Assembly (NCBI GenBank): GCA_051294905.1
Contig: CM119371.1
Span: 8,310,001-8,374,000, forward strand
Direction: 5' to 3'
From: Botryllus schlosseri
Lineage: Eukaryota
Length of the DNA: 64,000 nt
Shown: positions 12,176 to 38,964 of the stretch, piece after piece
Position numbering within the stretch: the first letter of the stretch is position 1
How the letters are laid out: every line of letters begins with the position of its first letter
Position numbers and translations under genes: made by a program
Notes under the pieces: model-generated
Database searches by the model: none
What the model was told of the DNA's origin: nothing
The model's input: the letters and a program-made list of their open reading frames with translations, nothing else

Positions 12176-12738
12176 AGTAGTGTTATGGGTATCGTTTGTT
12201 ACGCACCAATCCCAGAAGGCCACGTCGCCTTAATTGCCACGCCTACATTGGCACATCATCCGCCCATTGCCGCACCTACAGGACACCCATTGCCACGTTA
12301 CTTGCCGCACCTATAGCATGCCCATTGCCACATCAGCCTATTGCCACATCATCTGCTACGTCATCTGCGCCACATCATCAAGCACCATGCCTATAGTGCC
12401 ACATCATCCATTGCCACATCATCACTGCATTGATTGCCGCATCTATATGACGCGCAGCAGCCCGTCAGCCAGCGCGATGTCGATTGCTGCACCTATGTCA
12501 CTCATTGCCACATCAAAACTTACCTAAGCTAGAATCGAACCTGGCTTGTTTGGGTATAATTTCACGTCGCTTACCACCAGGCTATTGAGCAAACTAGCCG
12601 TATTGAGCTGTTTTGAGAATATAACCGCCGATTCTCTCTTAAATTCCGAGACAACACCTTTTTCGAGTAATAACACATAAATGTAAAACTATAACACCTG
12701 TGTCATCATTAATTAGTCAATTATTTCAGGGAATTCTG
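12176..12738 (+). repeat. Left terminal inverted repeat of the outer Polinton
   Basis: Reverse complement of ~38383-38964; nearly identical to ~12650, then diverged; contains repeated (A/T)TGCCACAT and CATCATC motifs. Confidence 0.95.
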
Positions 12739-12750
12739 CAATGTCTCCTA

Positions 12751-12890
12751 ACACTTTACTCAGTCTCATTGAAATAGCATTGTATAGTGTATCAGTTCAT
12801 TTTATTTCGAAAAAATAGCATATCAATGATATCGTTGATCGTTATTGCGTTGATTCGCGTGCTGAAATCCTCCAGATCGATTGATGTTTC
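12751..12890. repeat. ~140-bp direct repeat copy 1 (3' end / polyA module of a minus-strand unit)
   Basis: Diverged copy at 14366-14503; TTTATT on + gives AATAAA on - just downstream of the ORF stop at 12823. Confidence 0.8.
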
Positions 12891-13305
12891 TAGGTACACC
12901 GCTTTGCTGCCATCCGACACTTCGATCCGAGTTCTTTCGTTCGATCTGACCGTTTTGTTTGATGTAGCGATCACTGGCTTGTAGTATATACGATACGAGC
13001 GGAAGGTCGGGATTAGGAACAACTACGCTGGGCGAATAGATGACAAATTCATCAGCTGGATTCAGAGGTTGATAATGCTCGATCCCGTCGCGAGTATACG
13101 TAAAGACCAAACCTCCTTCATGCTTCAGAGTGGCTCGATATTTCTGAATGGCCCCGCTTGTGGAATGTACAAAGAGTTGATCCGAGGTCAATTCTGCTCC
13201 ATTCGAGGCTTCGATACGTAATTTTGTGATGTCATTAAAAAGATACAAGTCTTTTCTATAGGGCCCCTTGGCCAGAATAGTATCTCCACGGATTGCTAGA
13301 CTCAT
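12823..13305 (-). CDS. Hypothetical element protein (~160 aa from MSLAIRG; ORF open up to 13368)
   Basis: Long ORF directly downstream of the IAP gene on the same strand, followed by AATAAA; no recognised motif. Confidence 0.55.
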   Translation of the reverse strand: MSLAIRGDTILAKGPYRKDLYLFNDITKLRIEASNGAELTSDQLFVHSTSGAIQKYRATLKHEGGLVFTYTRDGIEHYQPLNPADEFVIYSPSVVVPNPDLPLVSYILQASDRYIKQNGQIERKNSDRSVGWQQSGVPRNINRSGGFQHANQRNNDQRYH

Positions 13306-13321
13306 TCTTTGAAAAGAAATA

Positions 13322-13903
13322 TCAAACATAAGTACAACAGTCATCACGCAATTCCACCTCGCCATCAAATTTAGTCGAGCCTCTTCTTATATTAGGTGTC
13401 GCATAACAGACATTACGAATATATTGCAACCCCTTCCGCTTGATGAGAAAAGGACACGCAGGATAAAACTTTGCATGCTCGAACCAGGGATCATCGCACG
13501 GCAACCAATTTTGAAACAGCCCTCCGCACGAGAAACACTTTAAATGATCCTTATAGCCCAAATAGAACAATCCGCAGTCTGCGAGCTCGGCTCCGGAGGT
13601 ATTTATATTATCCGGCCATCGCATGAATGTGCTTAGTCTACGAGCATACCGTGTCATGTTATAGAAAACTGGATCATTCAGCGGGGAGACAGTTACATCT
13701 CTATGCTTCGCATAGCATTCATAAATCTTTTCCCCTCTGTTATTTATCATAGCTTGGTACTGTTCAATGGGACCCATCCGAGTTTCATCTTCGCTTATTT
13801 CTATGCTACTTGTGGTACCGGTGCAAGCGCAGTTGAATGTAGCGTAATTTGTAGGATCCATACTACGCTTAGGTAGCGAATCGCTTTGGTCAATGTTCGA
13901 CAT
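13322..13903 (-). CDS. Inhibitor-of-apoptosis-like protein with a single BIR domain, no RING
   Basis: RLSTFMRWP...ELADCGLFYLGYKDHLKCFSCGGLFQNWLPCDDPWFEHAKFYPACPFL fits the BIR consensus with C-x2-C-x16-H-x6-C zinc ligands. Confidence 0.95.
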   Translation of the reverse strand: MSNIDQSDSLPKRSMDPTNYATFNCACTGTTSSIEISEDETRMGPIEQYQAMINNRGEKIYECYAKHRDVTVSPLNDPVFYNMTRYARRLSTFMRWPDNINTSGAELADCGLFYLGYKDHLKCFSCGGLFQNWLPCDDPWFEHAKFYPACPFLIKRKGLQYIRNVCYATPNIRRGSTKFDGEVELRDDCCTYV

Positions 13904-13940
13904 TGCTATCCGAATTGATATACTCTCATGATCAGTATGC

Positions 13941-13946
13941 TTTATA
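13941..13946 (-). promoter_or_regulatory. Candidate TATA box of the IAP gene
   Basis: TATAAA on the minus strand ~38 bp upstream of the ATG at 13903. Confidence 0.4.
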
Positions 13947-36100: not shown

Positions 36101-36348
36101 GACACAATAGCCGCTCGCCACCACACCCATAAGACACAATAGCCGCTCACGACCCCCGCCATAAGACATAAAAGCCGCTCACCACCCCCGGTTTTCCAGC
36201 CGCTCACGACCCCCGCCATAAGACGCAATAGCCGCTCACCACCCCGCCATAAGGTATAAGGAGCCGCTCACCACCCCCGGTTTTCAGGCACCTCACCACC
36301 CCGCCCATAAGAACCCCTGCCACCGGTTGAGCGATCATAATAACTACT
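30136..36348 (-). repeat. Right arm (6213 bp) of the giant inverted repeat
   Basis: Reverse complement of 22912-29157. Confidence 0.97.
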
Positions 36349-36354
36349 TTCGCT

Positions 36355-37043
36355 CCTACAGCAAACGCAGCTTACATTACGGCGGTACTGAACATCGAGT
36401 GATAAGCGGGACTAGGCAGGCTACCCTTAATGCGAATTTGCATTTTGCTGGTACAATCTATGCTATAGTTGAGCGACTTTGATACGACCTCAGCACACTT
36501 CTTTGATATAGCTGCGCAACGATCTAGACTTGAACGTCGGCGTCTGGGACAGATGTGATGTTATAGCCCGCAGTTGCATAGCGTTTTAGGAGGTAAATTA
36601 TAGCATAGGTTATAGATTTTATTCACAATCGGAAAAGCATCAGTTCACTAACTATTAAAATCACATATCTAAAAGCAGCTTATGGACTAGTGGCTTCATA
36701 TTATCATCATCTAGCAGGAGCCAGGAATTTGTATTGAGTGACTTCGTTCCTATAGCCCCAGCAAACGCAGCTTACGTTAATACGGCGTTACTGAACATCG
36801 AGTAATAAGCGGGACTAGCCAGGCTACACTTAATACGAATTTGCATTTTGTGGGTACAATCTATGCTATAGTTGAGCGACTTGAAATGATACGACCTTGG
36901 CATACTTCTTCGATATAGATATAGCTGCGCAAAGATGTAGCCTTGAACGTAGGCATTAGGTACAGATGTCAGTGATCTGAAATGTTACAGCTTCAACCCG
37001 CAGTGGCTATTAAAATCGCATATCTAAAAGCAGCTTATGGACT
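36355..37043 (+). repeat. Diverged ~350-390-bp tandem duplication in the outer element; unit 1 (22851-22911 + 36355-36687) is split by the nested element, unit 2 is 36688-37043
   Basis: CCAGGAATTTGTATTGAGTGACTTCG, CAGCAAACGCAGCTTAC, TACAATCTATGCTATAGTTGAGCGAC and AAAAGCAGCTTATGGACT occur in both units. Confidence 0.85.
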
Positions 37044-37222
37044 TGTAAAATCGGCATAATGCAAATCTACACGGAAATGTAGCCTAACTCACCTGCATCA
37101 TCAGGAGAAGTGTATAGCGCGATAGTTGTGACAGAAATGTGAAATTTTCCGAGCGTAAATTGCGTATGCAATGTCGGCGTTTTGATCTGAAATGAAATGA
37201 ACGAATTTAAATATAGGCGATA

Positions 37223-37255
<33 letters not shown>

Positions 37256-38382
37256 CTGTTGCTCTAGCTAATTAAATAATTCATAATATTGTAAGCACAC
37301 TGCGCGAAACGAGTAATAAGTGGGACTAGGGAACTTGCATGTACATACGAATTTATACGAATTCGGTCATATCCTCGCTTAACATTATAGCCGTGCACAG
37401 AACTCATTATTACGTTATTAGCTATTTAAAATGATGCGATATAGGTGAAATCTCGATGTAATTCAATCTGTGCGTATTATCCATGTATGCTCCAATACGT
37501 TTTGCAGCTTTAGTATAGGTATTGGATCTAATATATTCTATAAAACATCTACGTTGCTATATATATATATATATATCTTAATCCGGAGTGCATTGCTGCA
37601 TCGAAAAATTATAGCTATATGCGGTACGCTGTCGATTTTTCAATATAGACAAGAAATAGCCCACCTTTAGTGTTGCGTAATCTGGCTTGTCATTATATGC
37701 TTGTAACTAGTTCCGGCTTGCGCTGCTAGTCTTCTTACCTGCATGAAATATAGGATGTTTTAGCTTCAAACTCGACGCATTAGCATGCCGAATTTGTAAC
37801 CACAGCGAGATTCGAGTATTAAGCGAGGCTAGATAGTCTACCCTTAACAGAGAACTTGCATATACATTCAAATTTATGCGACTTCGGCTATATTGCTGGT
37901 TAACATTATAGCCGCGCACAGAACTCATTATTACGTTAGCTATTGGAGAAATCTCAACGTAATTCAATCTGTGTGCACAATCCACGTAAGCTAATGCTGC
38001 ATCGAGAAATTATAGCTACATTTAGTTTAAATTGACACGAAAATACATTGATCTTACCTTGTCTGCGATGGCTACCTCGCTGCGCACATACTTGTAATAG
38101 AAATGCGAAGTTTTCAGAATGCGAATTGCTTTACGTCGGAACTAAACATTCTAATTCGTATCGCCAACGCGGCATTTTCTTGGAAACGCAACTTTATTTA
38201 TAATGTTCTAATTCACTATGTCGATGTGTCGCGACTTCTTGGAATCGTAAGCAACTGTATTCGTGGCACATTTACACGCGTCAATTTCTTGGAATAGTAT
38301 TCGGCAATATGCGCGGCGCATGAGCTTTGCGTGATCGTAGGCCTTTATGGTTGCGATATCTGTATTATCAAGTTGCATTTGA

Positions 38383-38964
38383 AGAATTCCCCAAAGTCAT
38401 TGACTAATTAATGATTACACAGGTGTTATAGTACACACGAACATAGTCTTACATTTATGTGTAATAGCTCGAAAAAGGTGTTGTCAAGTCTCGAAATTTA
38501 AGAGAGAATCGGCGGTTATATTCTCAAAACAGCTCAATACGGCTAGTTTGCTCAATAGCCTGGTGGTAAGCGACGTGAAATTATACCCAAACAAGCCAGG
38601 TTCGATTCTAGCTAAGGTAAGTTTTGATGTGGCAATGAGTGACATAGGTGCAGCAATCGACATCGCGCTGGCTGACGGGCTGCTGCGCGTCATATAGATG
38701 CGGCAATCAATGCAGTGATGATGTGGCAATGGATGATGTGGCACTATAGGCATGGTGCTTGATGATGTGGCGCAGATGACGTAGCAGATGATGTGGCAAT
38801 AGGCTGATGTGGCAATGGGCATGCTATAGGTGCGGCAAGTAACGTGGCAATGGGTGTCCTGTAGGTGCGGCAATGGGCGGATGATGTGCCAATGTAGGCG
38901 TGGCAATTAAGGCGACGTGGCCTTCTGGGATTGGTGCGTAACAAACGATACCCATAACACTACT
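38383..38964 (-). repeat. Right terminal inverted repeat of the outer Polinton
   Basis: Reverse complement of 12176-12738; ends ACTACT followed by the TSD CATGGA. Confidence 0.95.

Follow-up and report, generated by a model that had tools for sequence, protein, structure and literature searches.

The genome of Botryllus schlosseri harbours a Polinton/Maverick variant whose polymerase gene has been exchanged for a foreign cassette, and which has multiplied beside polymerase-encoding copies of the same family. We found it in an adintovirus-like insertion, here called the outer element, at positions 12176-38964 of the window, the whole stretch of 64,000 nucleotides that was analysed. Comparison with sister copies indicates that the protein-primed DNA polymerase (pPolB) was lost once, before this insertion, and that the variant then spread to at least 11 loci. 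We consider it probable that the variant, having traded its polymerase for the cassette and spread, is served in trans by the polymerase of its sister copies.

Architecture of the outer element

The outer element belongs to a family (family 1) of about 40 copies in the 495-Mb genome. It has the terminal inverted repeats (TIRs) and 6-bp target-site duplication (TSD) of a Polinton/Maverick, as an earlier sequence-only reading had stated, as well as an rve integrase, a double jelly-roll major capsid protein (MCP) and an A32/FtsK-type ATPase. The ATPase, integrase, capsid and putative protease frames, reported there as uninterrupted, are indeed open. A polymerase, likewise a mark of Polintons/Mavericks, is missing from the outer element and present in sister copies. 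The features are the following.

12170-12175: left TSD CATGGA, read directly, identical to the hexamer at 38965-38970
12176-12652, plus strand: left TIR, 477 nt, starting AGTAGT, 100% complementary to 38488-38964
12823-13365, minus strand: ORF of 180-187 aa belonging to no known family, 97% aa identity in a pPolB-positive copy
13322-13903, minus strand: IAP-like gene with one BIR domain (Pfam BIR, E 3.4e-18), also in pPolB-positive copies
14133-16308: substitution cassette, 2,176 bp; homology to a pPolB-positive copy ends at 14132 and resumes at 16309
14685-14960, minus strand: orphan gene X, 92 aa; paralogues occur in the middle of the nested element and in further palindromic derivatives (tblastn)
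15479-16138, plus strand: Bcl-2 family gene (Pfam Bcl-2, E 1.3e-20)
16310-16528, plus strand: pPolB vestige that retains 73 of the last 76 codons, with two in-frame stops
16535-17152, plus strand: A32/FtsK-type genome-packaging ATPase (Pfam Pox_A32, E 8.6e-9)
17071-17926, plus strand: a pair of short ORFs, 138 and 112-129 aa long, conserved in family 2 (aa identity 45% and 62%), without a match in Pfam
about 17893/17914-18912, plus strand: integrase with rve (Pfam, 2.2e-14) and C-terminal chromodomain (Chromo, 2.5e-8)
19072-19881 and 19878-20600, plus strand: a pair of paralogous ORFs, 269 and 240 aa long, at the position of minor capsid genes (putative pentons), matching each other and conserved in family 2
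20578-20949, plus strand: small basic ORF of 123 aa, conserved in family 2 (aa identity 74%)
20999-22276, plus strand: double jelly-roll MCP, 425 aa (AF2 pLDDT 92.8; Foldseek)
22273-22728, plus strand: putative adenain-like cysteine protease, 151 aa, assigned from position and strong constraint
22906-22911 and 36349-36354: TSD TTCGCT of the nested element, read directly
22912-36348: nested palindromic element, 13,437 bp, termini AGTAGTT...AACTACT
29212-29484, minus strand: gene X paralogue in the centre of the nested element (tblastn)
36355-38487: repeat-rich, ORF-free right arm; 14 ORFs searched with Pfam, no match
38488-38964, minus strand: right TIR, partner of 12176-12652
38965-38970: right TSD CATGGA, read directly

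The outer element, with termini AGTAGTG...CACTACT, is a young insertion, as the 100% identity of its TIRs indicates. Within the left TIR, at about positions 31-50, lies a conserved box, CCAATC[C/A]CAGAAGGCCACGT. Among the virion genes, the AF2 model of the capsid protein has as its top Foldseek matches the capsid proteins of Sputnik, PBCV-1 and mavirus (E 3e-16 to 4e-14) and of an iridovirus, with 4,636 relatives among cluster representatives. The putative penton ORFs have nameless ESM-Atlas clusters as their nearest neighbours, some of them viral. The putative protease has no match in Pfam, and its sole PDB sequence match is a weak one to the ASFV S273R cysteine protease (E 0.53). Pfam and PHROG searches of the 180-187 aa ORF were without a match; its 3' part, leftwards of a splice acceptor at 13057, is the piece with most coverage by single-cell RNA reads, taken at 95% identity or more, a level at which the copy or form of origin is not assignable. 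In sister copies the right arm is longer by tandem duplication, with duplicated blocks in L039 and L046.

The 'nested arms' of the earlier reading are a foreign, independent insertion and not sequence of the outer element. The arms at 23047-28331 and 30961-36245 are 100% identical, those at 28319-29157 and 30136-30974 98%. Over its first 100 bp the nested element matches, at 85-91%, the TIR pairs of pPolB-containing elements 15-17 kb long; it is a palindromic element derived from a second Polinton family. It inserted 180 bp downstream of the outer protease gene, after the outer element's own insertion. Virion and polymerase genes were not recognised in it, its 58 ORFs being without a Pfam match.

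Replacement of the polymerase

The longest ORF in the element measures 425 aa, in agreement with the statement that none exceeds this length. The accompanying claim that pPolB is absent needs amending: there is no polymerase ORF, but a C-terminal vestige of the gene persists at 16310-16528, with 77.6% identity to family-1 pPolB (tblastn, E 2.75e-27). A tblastn search with the pPolBs of three resident families found no other trace in the whole window, including 36355-38383 and the nested arms, where a degenerate copy had been considered. A profile search, proposed at the same time, would mislead if run with Pfam PF03175, which misses every pPolB tested in this genome. Because at least 130 polymerase copies here go undetected by this profile, 'no pPolB' calls that rest on it are unreliable. 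Passages of Starrett et al. (2021, PMC8502044) describe a 'Beta' PolB class of adintoviruses that pfam03175 does not recognise, and the polymerases of this genome likewise escape it.

A pPolB-positive sister copy (L045, L046 and L047) follows the window collinearly as far as 14132 and from 16309 onwards, and between these blocks holds ORF426, ORF174 and a 1294-aa ORF. The latter is a pPolB: its ESM-Atlas similarity is 0.96-0.97 to clusters with 96-100% PF03175 members (20 of 30 matches fall in that set), it is 62% identical to family-2 pPolB, and it contains a K...NS.FG motif and an ExoII-like motif. Through the junctions 14132/14133 and 16308/16309, the cassette of the outer element replaces 5,355 bp, namely ORF426, ORF174 and pPolB codons 1-1218. 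Of the two cassette genes, gene X has only 2 relatives in 5.8 billion proteins and an unusable AF2 model (pLDDT 49.8), and the Bcl-2 gene has no match in this sister copy (L045, L046 or L047). The cassette drew few reads in the single-cell RNA run. Both the Bcl-2 and the BIR/IAP gene had been overlooked in the earlier reading, whose option of a deletion derivative can be restated as a deletion-substitution derivative, given the vestige and the intact 1294-aa pPolB in the same place of sister copies.

An element without a pPolB ORF, in which gene X and the 180-aa ORF belong to no known family, could also represent an independent polymerase-less lineage that uses another replicase or host machinery, in the manner of Polinton-like viruses (PLVs). 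Most PLVs, according to the abstract of PMC5499653, encode neither polymerase nor integrase and have another large replication protein. The outer element resembles them in its module of capsid, ATPase and putative protease without pPolB; unlike them, it keeps an integrase and visibly derives from a pPolB-positive parent, and no alternative replicase was found in the searched ORFs. The vestige shows descent from a pPolB-positive genome, the 180-aa ORF occurs in pPolB-positive copies as well, and gene X, with its 92 aa and two relatives, speaks against such a lineage. So do the capsid genes, which are 96-99% identical between the variant and pPolB-positive copies and intermixed in the tree. We regard an independent lineage as highly improbable.

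Sister copies and spread of the variant

Lack of a polymerase is not a trait of the whole family: the ~5.35-kb segment with two ORFs and the 1294-aa pPolB is present at 25 or more sister loci. Full-length members are about 18.7 kb long (right end extrapolated) and comprise, in this order, TIR, an unknown ORF and IAP (both on the minus strand), ORF426, ORF174, pPolB (1294 aa) and ATPase, followed by two small ORFs, integrase, two putative pentons, a small basic ORF, capsid, protease, the repeat-rich arm and TIR. Twelve family-1 pPolBs are sited 4.47 kb upstream of family-1 capsid genes, and 11 of these have stop-free frames of 1294-1295 aa, an intact helper function in the same genome.

Sister copies do not all carry pPolB, however. 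Both junctions occur together at 11 loci on 8 contigs, spaced 2,163-2,231 bp. The right junction is spanned at 11 of 40 scored places, with the ATPase side only at 29 (293 candidates), and the left one at 13 of 40, with the IAP side only at 27 (137 candidates). Half-junction loci pair up in 25 of 27 cases, 23 of them at 5,302-5,359 bp and 2 at 4.3-4.4 kb. These locus counts are lower bounds, as 40 of 293, 40 of 137 and 36 of 356 candidates were scored. In the two variant copies read end to end the TSDs are unlike, CATGGA in the outer element and TACGGG in C11b, and the left flanks of three further variant copies also differ. At the junction segments, nine variant loci show up to 7% divergence from the outer element, and a tenth shows 11-14%.

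The decayed pPolB tail with its two stops would also be expected of a one-off deletion after insertion at this locus, the copy being a dead relic. This reading is refuted: the same two junctions recur at 11 loci with differing TSDs and flanks, and the lost segment was not just excised, since foreign sequence of 2.2 kb took its place. The identical junctions and unlike TSDs indicate instead a single loss before insertion and subsequent spread, which answers in the affirmative the question whether pPolB was already absent when the outer element inserted.

Constraint and recombination

Comparing the window with variant copy C11b, pN/pS is 0.16 in the capsid gene, 0.13 in the ATPase, 0.15 in the integrase, 0.05 in the putative protease, 0.10 in the IAP-like gene and 0.82 in the vestige. 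For the small basic ORF the value is 0.10. The virion, ATPase and integrase genes together span 0.05-0.33; the range is 0.03-0.05 in the putative protease and 0.72-0.82 in the vestige. The Bcl-2 gene looks weakly constrained (pN/pS 0.71, 29 gap positions in C11b). In a tree of capsid genes from 8 variant and 14 pPolB-positive copies, the variant requires 7 state changes; a single variant clade in this tree was rejected (AU p 9e-49). The mixing of the two forms points to exchange of capsid-module sequence by recombination and, for the same reason, the low pN/pS may stem from pPolB-positive genomes, imported by such exchange.

Mobilisation and replication

Family-1 ends that were compared all start with AGTAGT except two (AGTACT), and nearly all have the box at about 31-50, in variant, pPolB-positive and gene-less palindromic copies. 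Thus pPolB-positive copies share the terminal sequence of the variant, a comparison that the sequence-only reading had called for, and the variant has the same termini as autonomous copies. Gene-less palindromic derivatives of family 1 are flanked by a perfect 6-bp TSD at all 5 loci checked. None of the element's own genes is therefore required for mobilisation, and retention of the virion module may be incidental.

These derivatives, for which termini and an integrase in trans suffice, together with the young look of the insertions, the outer element having 100% identical TIRs, are what purely cut-and-paste mobilisation would produce. An own or sister integrase would then act on AGTAGT termini with neither protein-primed replication nor a virion stage, the capsid genes being undecayed passengers; integrase-only transposition would yield TSDs of the same kind. 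Against this, 8 of the 11 variant loci keep the 425-aa capsid frame uninterrupted in spite of their junction divergence, the virion, ATPase and integrase genes are far more constrained than the vestige (pN/pS 0.8), and the variant and pPolB-positive forms recombine, which fits shared replication. Cut-and-paste alone is therefore unlikely in our view.

We infer that replication in trans by the polymerase of sister copies is the best explanation. The one-time swap of 5,355 bp for the cassette with gene X and Bcl-2 would have left the variant with its cis requirements, the AGTAGT termini and the conserved sub-terminal box, and with its own integrase, packaging ATPase and capsid genes. Sister copies that have the same termini would provide protein-primed replication in trans through their intact polymerases. 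The outcome would be a morph of a helper-dependent, defective-interfering-like kind, its polymerase exchanged for an additional anti-apoptotic gene. Of the helper-dependent lineage envisaged earlier, the spread without pPolB beside pPolB-positive sisters is thus observed, and the dependence itself is the inferred part. A tentative extension, with the odds somewhat against it, is that the variant forms a stable second morph of an active Polinton and a parasite of its own family, using its own capsid, packaging and integration genes and its siblings' polymerase, kept current by recombination and maybe advantaged by a shorter genome and Bcl-2.

Relation to known systems

The outer element shares with animal Polintons/Mavericks (adintoviruses) the TIRs, the 6-bp TSD, the rve integrase with chromodomain, the A32-type ATPase and the double jelly-roll capsid, and differs from them in lacking a polymerase. 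Starrett et al. (2021, PMC8502044) report Bcl2 and IAP homologues as accessory genes of adintoviruses; here, in contrast, Bcl-2 is no add-on and lies inside the cassette that replaces the polymerase. A second comparison is with non-autonomous DNA transposon derivatives, which autonomous copies sharing their ends mobilise in trans, a concept outlined in part of Arkhipova & Yushenova (2019, PMC6431247). Like these, the variant has termini in common with autonomous members, misses an essential gene and has reached several loci. Unlike them, it kept the integrase and the whole virion module, lost the replicase alone, gained two genes and continues to recombine with the autonomous form.

Adenoviruses use protein-primed replication that starts at inverted terminal repeats, and such replicons are known to give inverted-duplication defective genomes. 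By analogy, the variant may be likened to helper-dependent or defective-interfering adenovirus genomes, being shorter, retaining terminal origins and presumably needing a co-resident polymerase, and long-arm palindromes of the nested type resemble the inverted-duplication genomes. In contrast to the adenoviral ones, the forms described here are germline-integrated and known from sequence alone.

Implications

Possession of a polymerase is a defining trait of Polintons, which are described as self-synthesizing. The present family includes a natural variant that dropped the polymerase, kept the other core genes and reached about eleven loci beside helper-competent siblings. Through it one can ask, in a concrete case, by what route Polintons replicate, which ends their polymerase recognises, and whether dependence and hyperparasitism arise within a single Polinton family. 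If the proposed dependence is true, the variant would, together with the gene-poor palindromic 'mini-Polintons' that carry gene X and Bcl-2, make up a small ecosystem of helpers and dependents in one animal genome.

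Architecture of the outer element

The insertion at 12176-38964, located there by the sequence-only reading together with its TIRs, TSD and core ORFs, belongs to the Polintons/Mavericks, as its ends, TSD, integrase, ATPase and capsid gene show. Its 477-nt TIRs (12176-12652 against 38488-38964) show 100% complementarity, the termini read AGTAGTG...CACTACT, and the hexamer CATGGA stands at both flanks. Once the nested element and the nested TSD are subtracted, the outer element measures 13,346 bp.

12176-12652: left TIR
12823-13365, minus strand: unknown ORF of 180-187 aa at the left end
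13322-13903, minus strand: BIR-domain (IAP) gene
14133-16308: cassette with gene X and Bcl-2
16310-16528: polymerase vestige
22912-36348: nested element
36355-38487: ORF-free right arm
38488-38964: right TIR

Pfam bears out the two enzymes named from sequence, an A32-type ATPase and an rve integrase with a chromodomain, and adds two genes absent from the earlier gene list, BIR/IAP (E 3.4e-18) and Bcl-2 (E 1.3e-20). The longest ORF is 425 aa, none being larger, as had been claimed. Its call as a capsid gene also holds: an AF2 model (pLDDT 92.8), built from a 66-sequence alignment, has the double jelly-roll fold and matches in Foldseek the capsid proteins of Sputnik, iridovirus, PBCV-1 and mavirus (E 3e-16 to 4e-14). 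An exhaustive search was needed for this alignment, a word-based search having given 2 matches, and a scan of IMG/VR with the capsid protein as query found no relative. No family or fold test confirms the identity of the putative protease and the two 'penton' ORFs, which are kept in other resident families and strongly constrained. What the window copy lacks is the polymerase by which Polintons/Mavericks are defined.

The right arm, like its counterparts in other copies (L046 1687-5301; L039 3727-7381), consists of tandemly multiplied blocks, for example a repeat of ~713 bp in a copy that keeps its polymerase. The degree of multiplication differs between copies and accounts for size differences of 1-2 kb among them.

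Polymerases missed by profile searches

The profile search proposed for protein-primed DNA polymerase (pPolB) gave a negative result that proved invalid, the profile being blind to the resident pPolBs. Run genome-wide, Pfam PF03175 made a single find, a cellular polymerase-delta-like gene (L001, C5:11747019-11750414) with one uninterrupted 1075-aa frame, apparently intronless. The conclusion that the genome has no pPolB was dropped, since the resident enzymes go undetected by Pfam even at E 0.1. PHROGs and PDB sequence search miss them as well, in all three resident Polinton families tested, and the genome has at least 130 copies. The large ORFs adjoining the capsid genes of family 3 (L043) and family 2 (L044, a 1288-aa frame) are Pfam-negative at E 0.1. 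Used as queries, they gave at least 93 (91 of 357 candidates scored) and at least 37 genome matches (36 of 356 candidates scored), respectively, many with open frames of 1100-1300 aa. For family 1, to which the window element belongs, the large ORF is identified as a pPolB by its ESM-Atlas neighbours (scores 0.96-0.97), which fall in clusters with 96-100% PF03175-carrying members (20 of 30 matches in that set). It carries a K...NS.FG motif and an ExoII-like motif. In this context, the article by Starrett et al. (PMC8502044) describes a divergent 'Beta' class of PolB.

The family-2 locus L044 (C1:7944000-7953422) lies ~356 kb upstream of the window; capsid proteins of family 2 are 65-70% identical to the window's. 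At L044 the ATPase directly follows an intact pPolB of 1288 aa, and a 145-aa ORF lies upstream of the polymerase; from ATPase to capsid gene its order is the same as in the window. This family forms two subgroups, each with about a dozen intact copies.

A cassette in place of the polymerase

At least 35 copies of the window capsid protein are uninterrupted and share 96-100% aa identity with it; about 6 others are shortened or broken (99 of 274 candidates scored). At least 12 pPolB frames of 1294 aa, 11 of them stop-free, lie 4.47 kb upstream of family-1 capsid genes, exactly as far as 16528 lies from the beginning of the window's capsid gene. These frames refuted a working hypothesis, formed on the first sister copy (C11b), that family 1 is wholly without pPolB.

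A polymerase-bearing copy on C4, read as three pieces (L047, L045 and L046), is collinear with the window over the TIR, the left-end ORF and IAP, as far as 14132. It continues with ORF426, ORF174 and pPolB before homology to the window resumes at 16309, which is 226 bp ahead of the ATPase start. Immediately beyond this point, 16310-16528 corresponds to the terminal 76 codons of pPolB (77.6% identity, E 2.75e-27), of which it lacks three, and is interrupted by two in-frame stops. Thus 5,355 bp were swapped for the 2,176-bp cassette containing gene X and Bcl-2. The pPolBs of all three families, used as tblastn queries, matched nothing besides the vestige anywhere in the window. The earlier statement that the element has no pPolB is thus right in that the window copy has no intact polymerase, but it overlooked the vestige, and the family itself keeps pPolB in sister copies.

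The ORFs of 426 and 174 aa upstream of pPolB (L045 76-1708), lost with the polymerase in the variant, belong to no Pfam or PHROG family. In adintoviruses, the position upstream of the polymerase is occupied by 'Oncoid' genes according to the article by Starrett et al. (PMC8502044).

Spread, constraint and recombination

Of 40 places scored with a 600-bp probe across the right cassette junction, 11 match over its full length and 29 on the ATPase side only. The left-junction probe matches across the junction at 13 of 40, which comprise all 11 of those loci and two places on C2 that form a palindromic pair, and on the IAP side only at 27. At the 11 variant loci the two probes lie 2,163-2,231 bp from each other. 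Of the 27 half-junction loci, 25 form pairs, 23 with a spacing of 5,302-5,359 bp and 2 with one of 4.3-4.4 kb. The variant thus occupies at least 11 loci over 8 contigs. C11b, a second copy read whole, is collinear with the window copy at 96-97% identity; it is free of the nested element and flanked by a different TSD, TACGGG. Three further variant copies also have differing left flanks. The junctions shared by at least 11 loci, together with the differing TSDs and flanks of the copies compared, answer the question, left by the sequence-only reading, of whether pPolB was already absent at insertion: the polymerase was lost before, and the variant then spread. Junction segments range from 86% to 100% identity to the window copy, so the variant has persisted for some time. 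The 425-aa capsid frame is open at 8 of the 11 loci and broken or partial at 3.

All family-1 ends compared begin with AGTAGT except two (AGTACT), and nearly all have a conserved box following ~24 variable bases. This pattern is common to the variant, the polymerase-bearing form and gene-less palindromic copies. Perfect 6-bp TSDs flank all five palindromic derivatives checked, and therefore integration works in trans on family-1 ends. We infer that the variant is copied by the polymerase of sister copies, which would act on the termini common to both forms; integrase and virion proteins would come from the variant's own genes.

Comparison of the window copy with C11b gives low pN/pS in the capsid gene (0.16, from 23 synonymous and 13 non-synonymous differences), protease (0.05), ATPase (0.13) and integrase (0.15), and higher values in Bcl-2 (0.71) and the polymerase vestige (0.82). 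The main rival to copying in trans is cut-and-paste by integrase alone, in which the capsid genes would be passengers. Recombination may have imported the low pN/pS into the variant. A capsid-gene tree was built from 8 variant and 14 polymerase-bearing copies, without 3 broken variant genes and about 15 other polymerase-bearing copies; in it the variant is not a clade. Seven changes of state are needed, and the AU test rejects a single variant clade (p 9e-49). As the junctions indicate a single origin, the two forms therefore recombine, which fits replication in the same cells.

Transcription

Reads and contigs were matched at ≥95% identity and are not assignable to a single copy. The cassette region is matched in 20 runs from 8 studies under three organism labels, and no RNA run is among those listed with the cassette. 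A single-cell RNA run gave 132 reads (from ~3% of the run), most of them on 12834-13200 in the orientation expected of minus-strand RNA. Joints at 16657>18987, 19116>21603, 19752>21603 and 21652>22534 occur in contigs of two other runs and in a read of single-cell RNA, all with CT..AC ends, that is, GT..AG on the minus strand; a splice acceptor lies at 13057. These data suggest that the minus strand carries a spliced transcription unit, which crosses the virion genes in antisense and terminates in the left-end ORF. One contig departs from the window exactly at 14132 and goes on as the polymerase-bearing form. A 14-letter stretch between exons in the contigs was not found in any of the loci compared.

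The nested palindrome and related derivatives

The inner palindrome is an insertion separate from the outer element, 13,437 bp long, with its own AGTAGT-type termini and its own 6-bp TSD, TTCGCT (22906-22911 and 36349-36354). Over 5,285 nt the two arms agree at 100%, and over a further 839 nt at 98%. No Pfam match came from 58 of its ORFs, nor from any of 78 small ORFs of the nested element, right arm and cassette at E 0.01. Its centre carries a paralogue of gene X, the 92-aa orphan also present in the outer element; the AF2 model of gene X (pLDDT 49.8) is too low for a fold search, and only 2 relatives were found. The first 100 bp match, at 85-91%, TIR pairs enclosing 15-17-kb pPolB-carrying elements (for example C16:8680824-8698298 and C1:19598838-19616100), and a twin on C12 matches at 100%. 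The nested element thus derives, as a gene-poor form, from another family that does carry a polymerase, family 3, whose capsid protein is 34-35% identical to the window's.

Many long-armed palindromic Polinton derivatives of 9.7-20.8 kb occur in the genome (L032/L033, L034/L035, L036/L037, L040/L041, L042). They have AGTAGT termini and perfect 6-bp TSDs, are without virion or polymerase genes, and hold copies of gene X and/or Bcl-2 in their inverted arms. The nested element is one of them. Their structure suggests that a linear replicon folded back on itself and that the products then integrated. A family-1 copy given by coordinates only (C9:4786204-4816548) has an apparent family-3-type polymerase fragment between right end and capsid gene. 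Nested Polintons may therefore land repeatedly in the stretch downstream of the protease.

Comparison with known systems

Homologues of Bcl2 and IAP are reported for adintoviruses in the article by Starrett et al. (PMC8502044). A polymerase-less, virion-complete Polinton sublineage was not found in the literature accessible outside subscription journals, Repbase and the supplements of PMC8502044, including the available text of PMC8097293, PMC6431247, PMC11131425 and bioRxiv 10.1101/2024.01.15.575659. Possession of an integrase and lack of an alternative replicase set the window element apart from Polinton-like viruses. The variant behaves like non-autonomous or defective-interfering derivatives. 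What makes it unusual is that it keeps every core gene but the replicase, has gained a cassette with Bcl-2 and recombines with the helper form.
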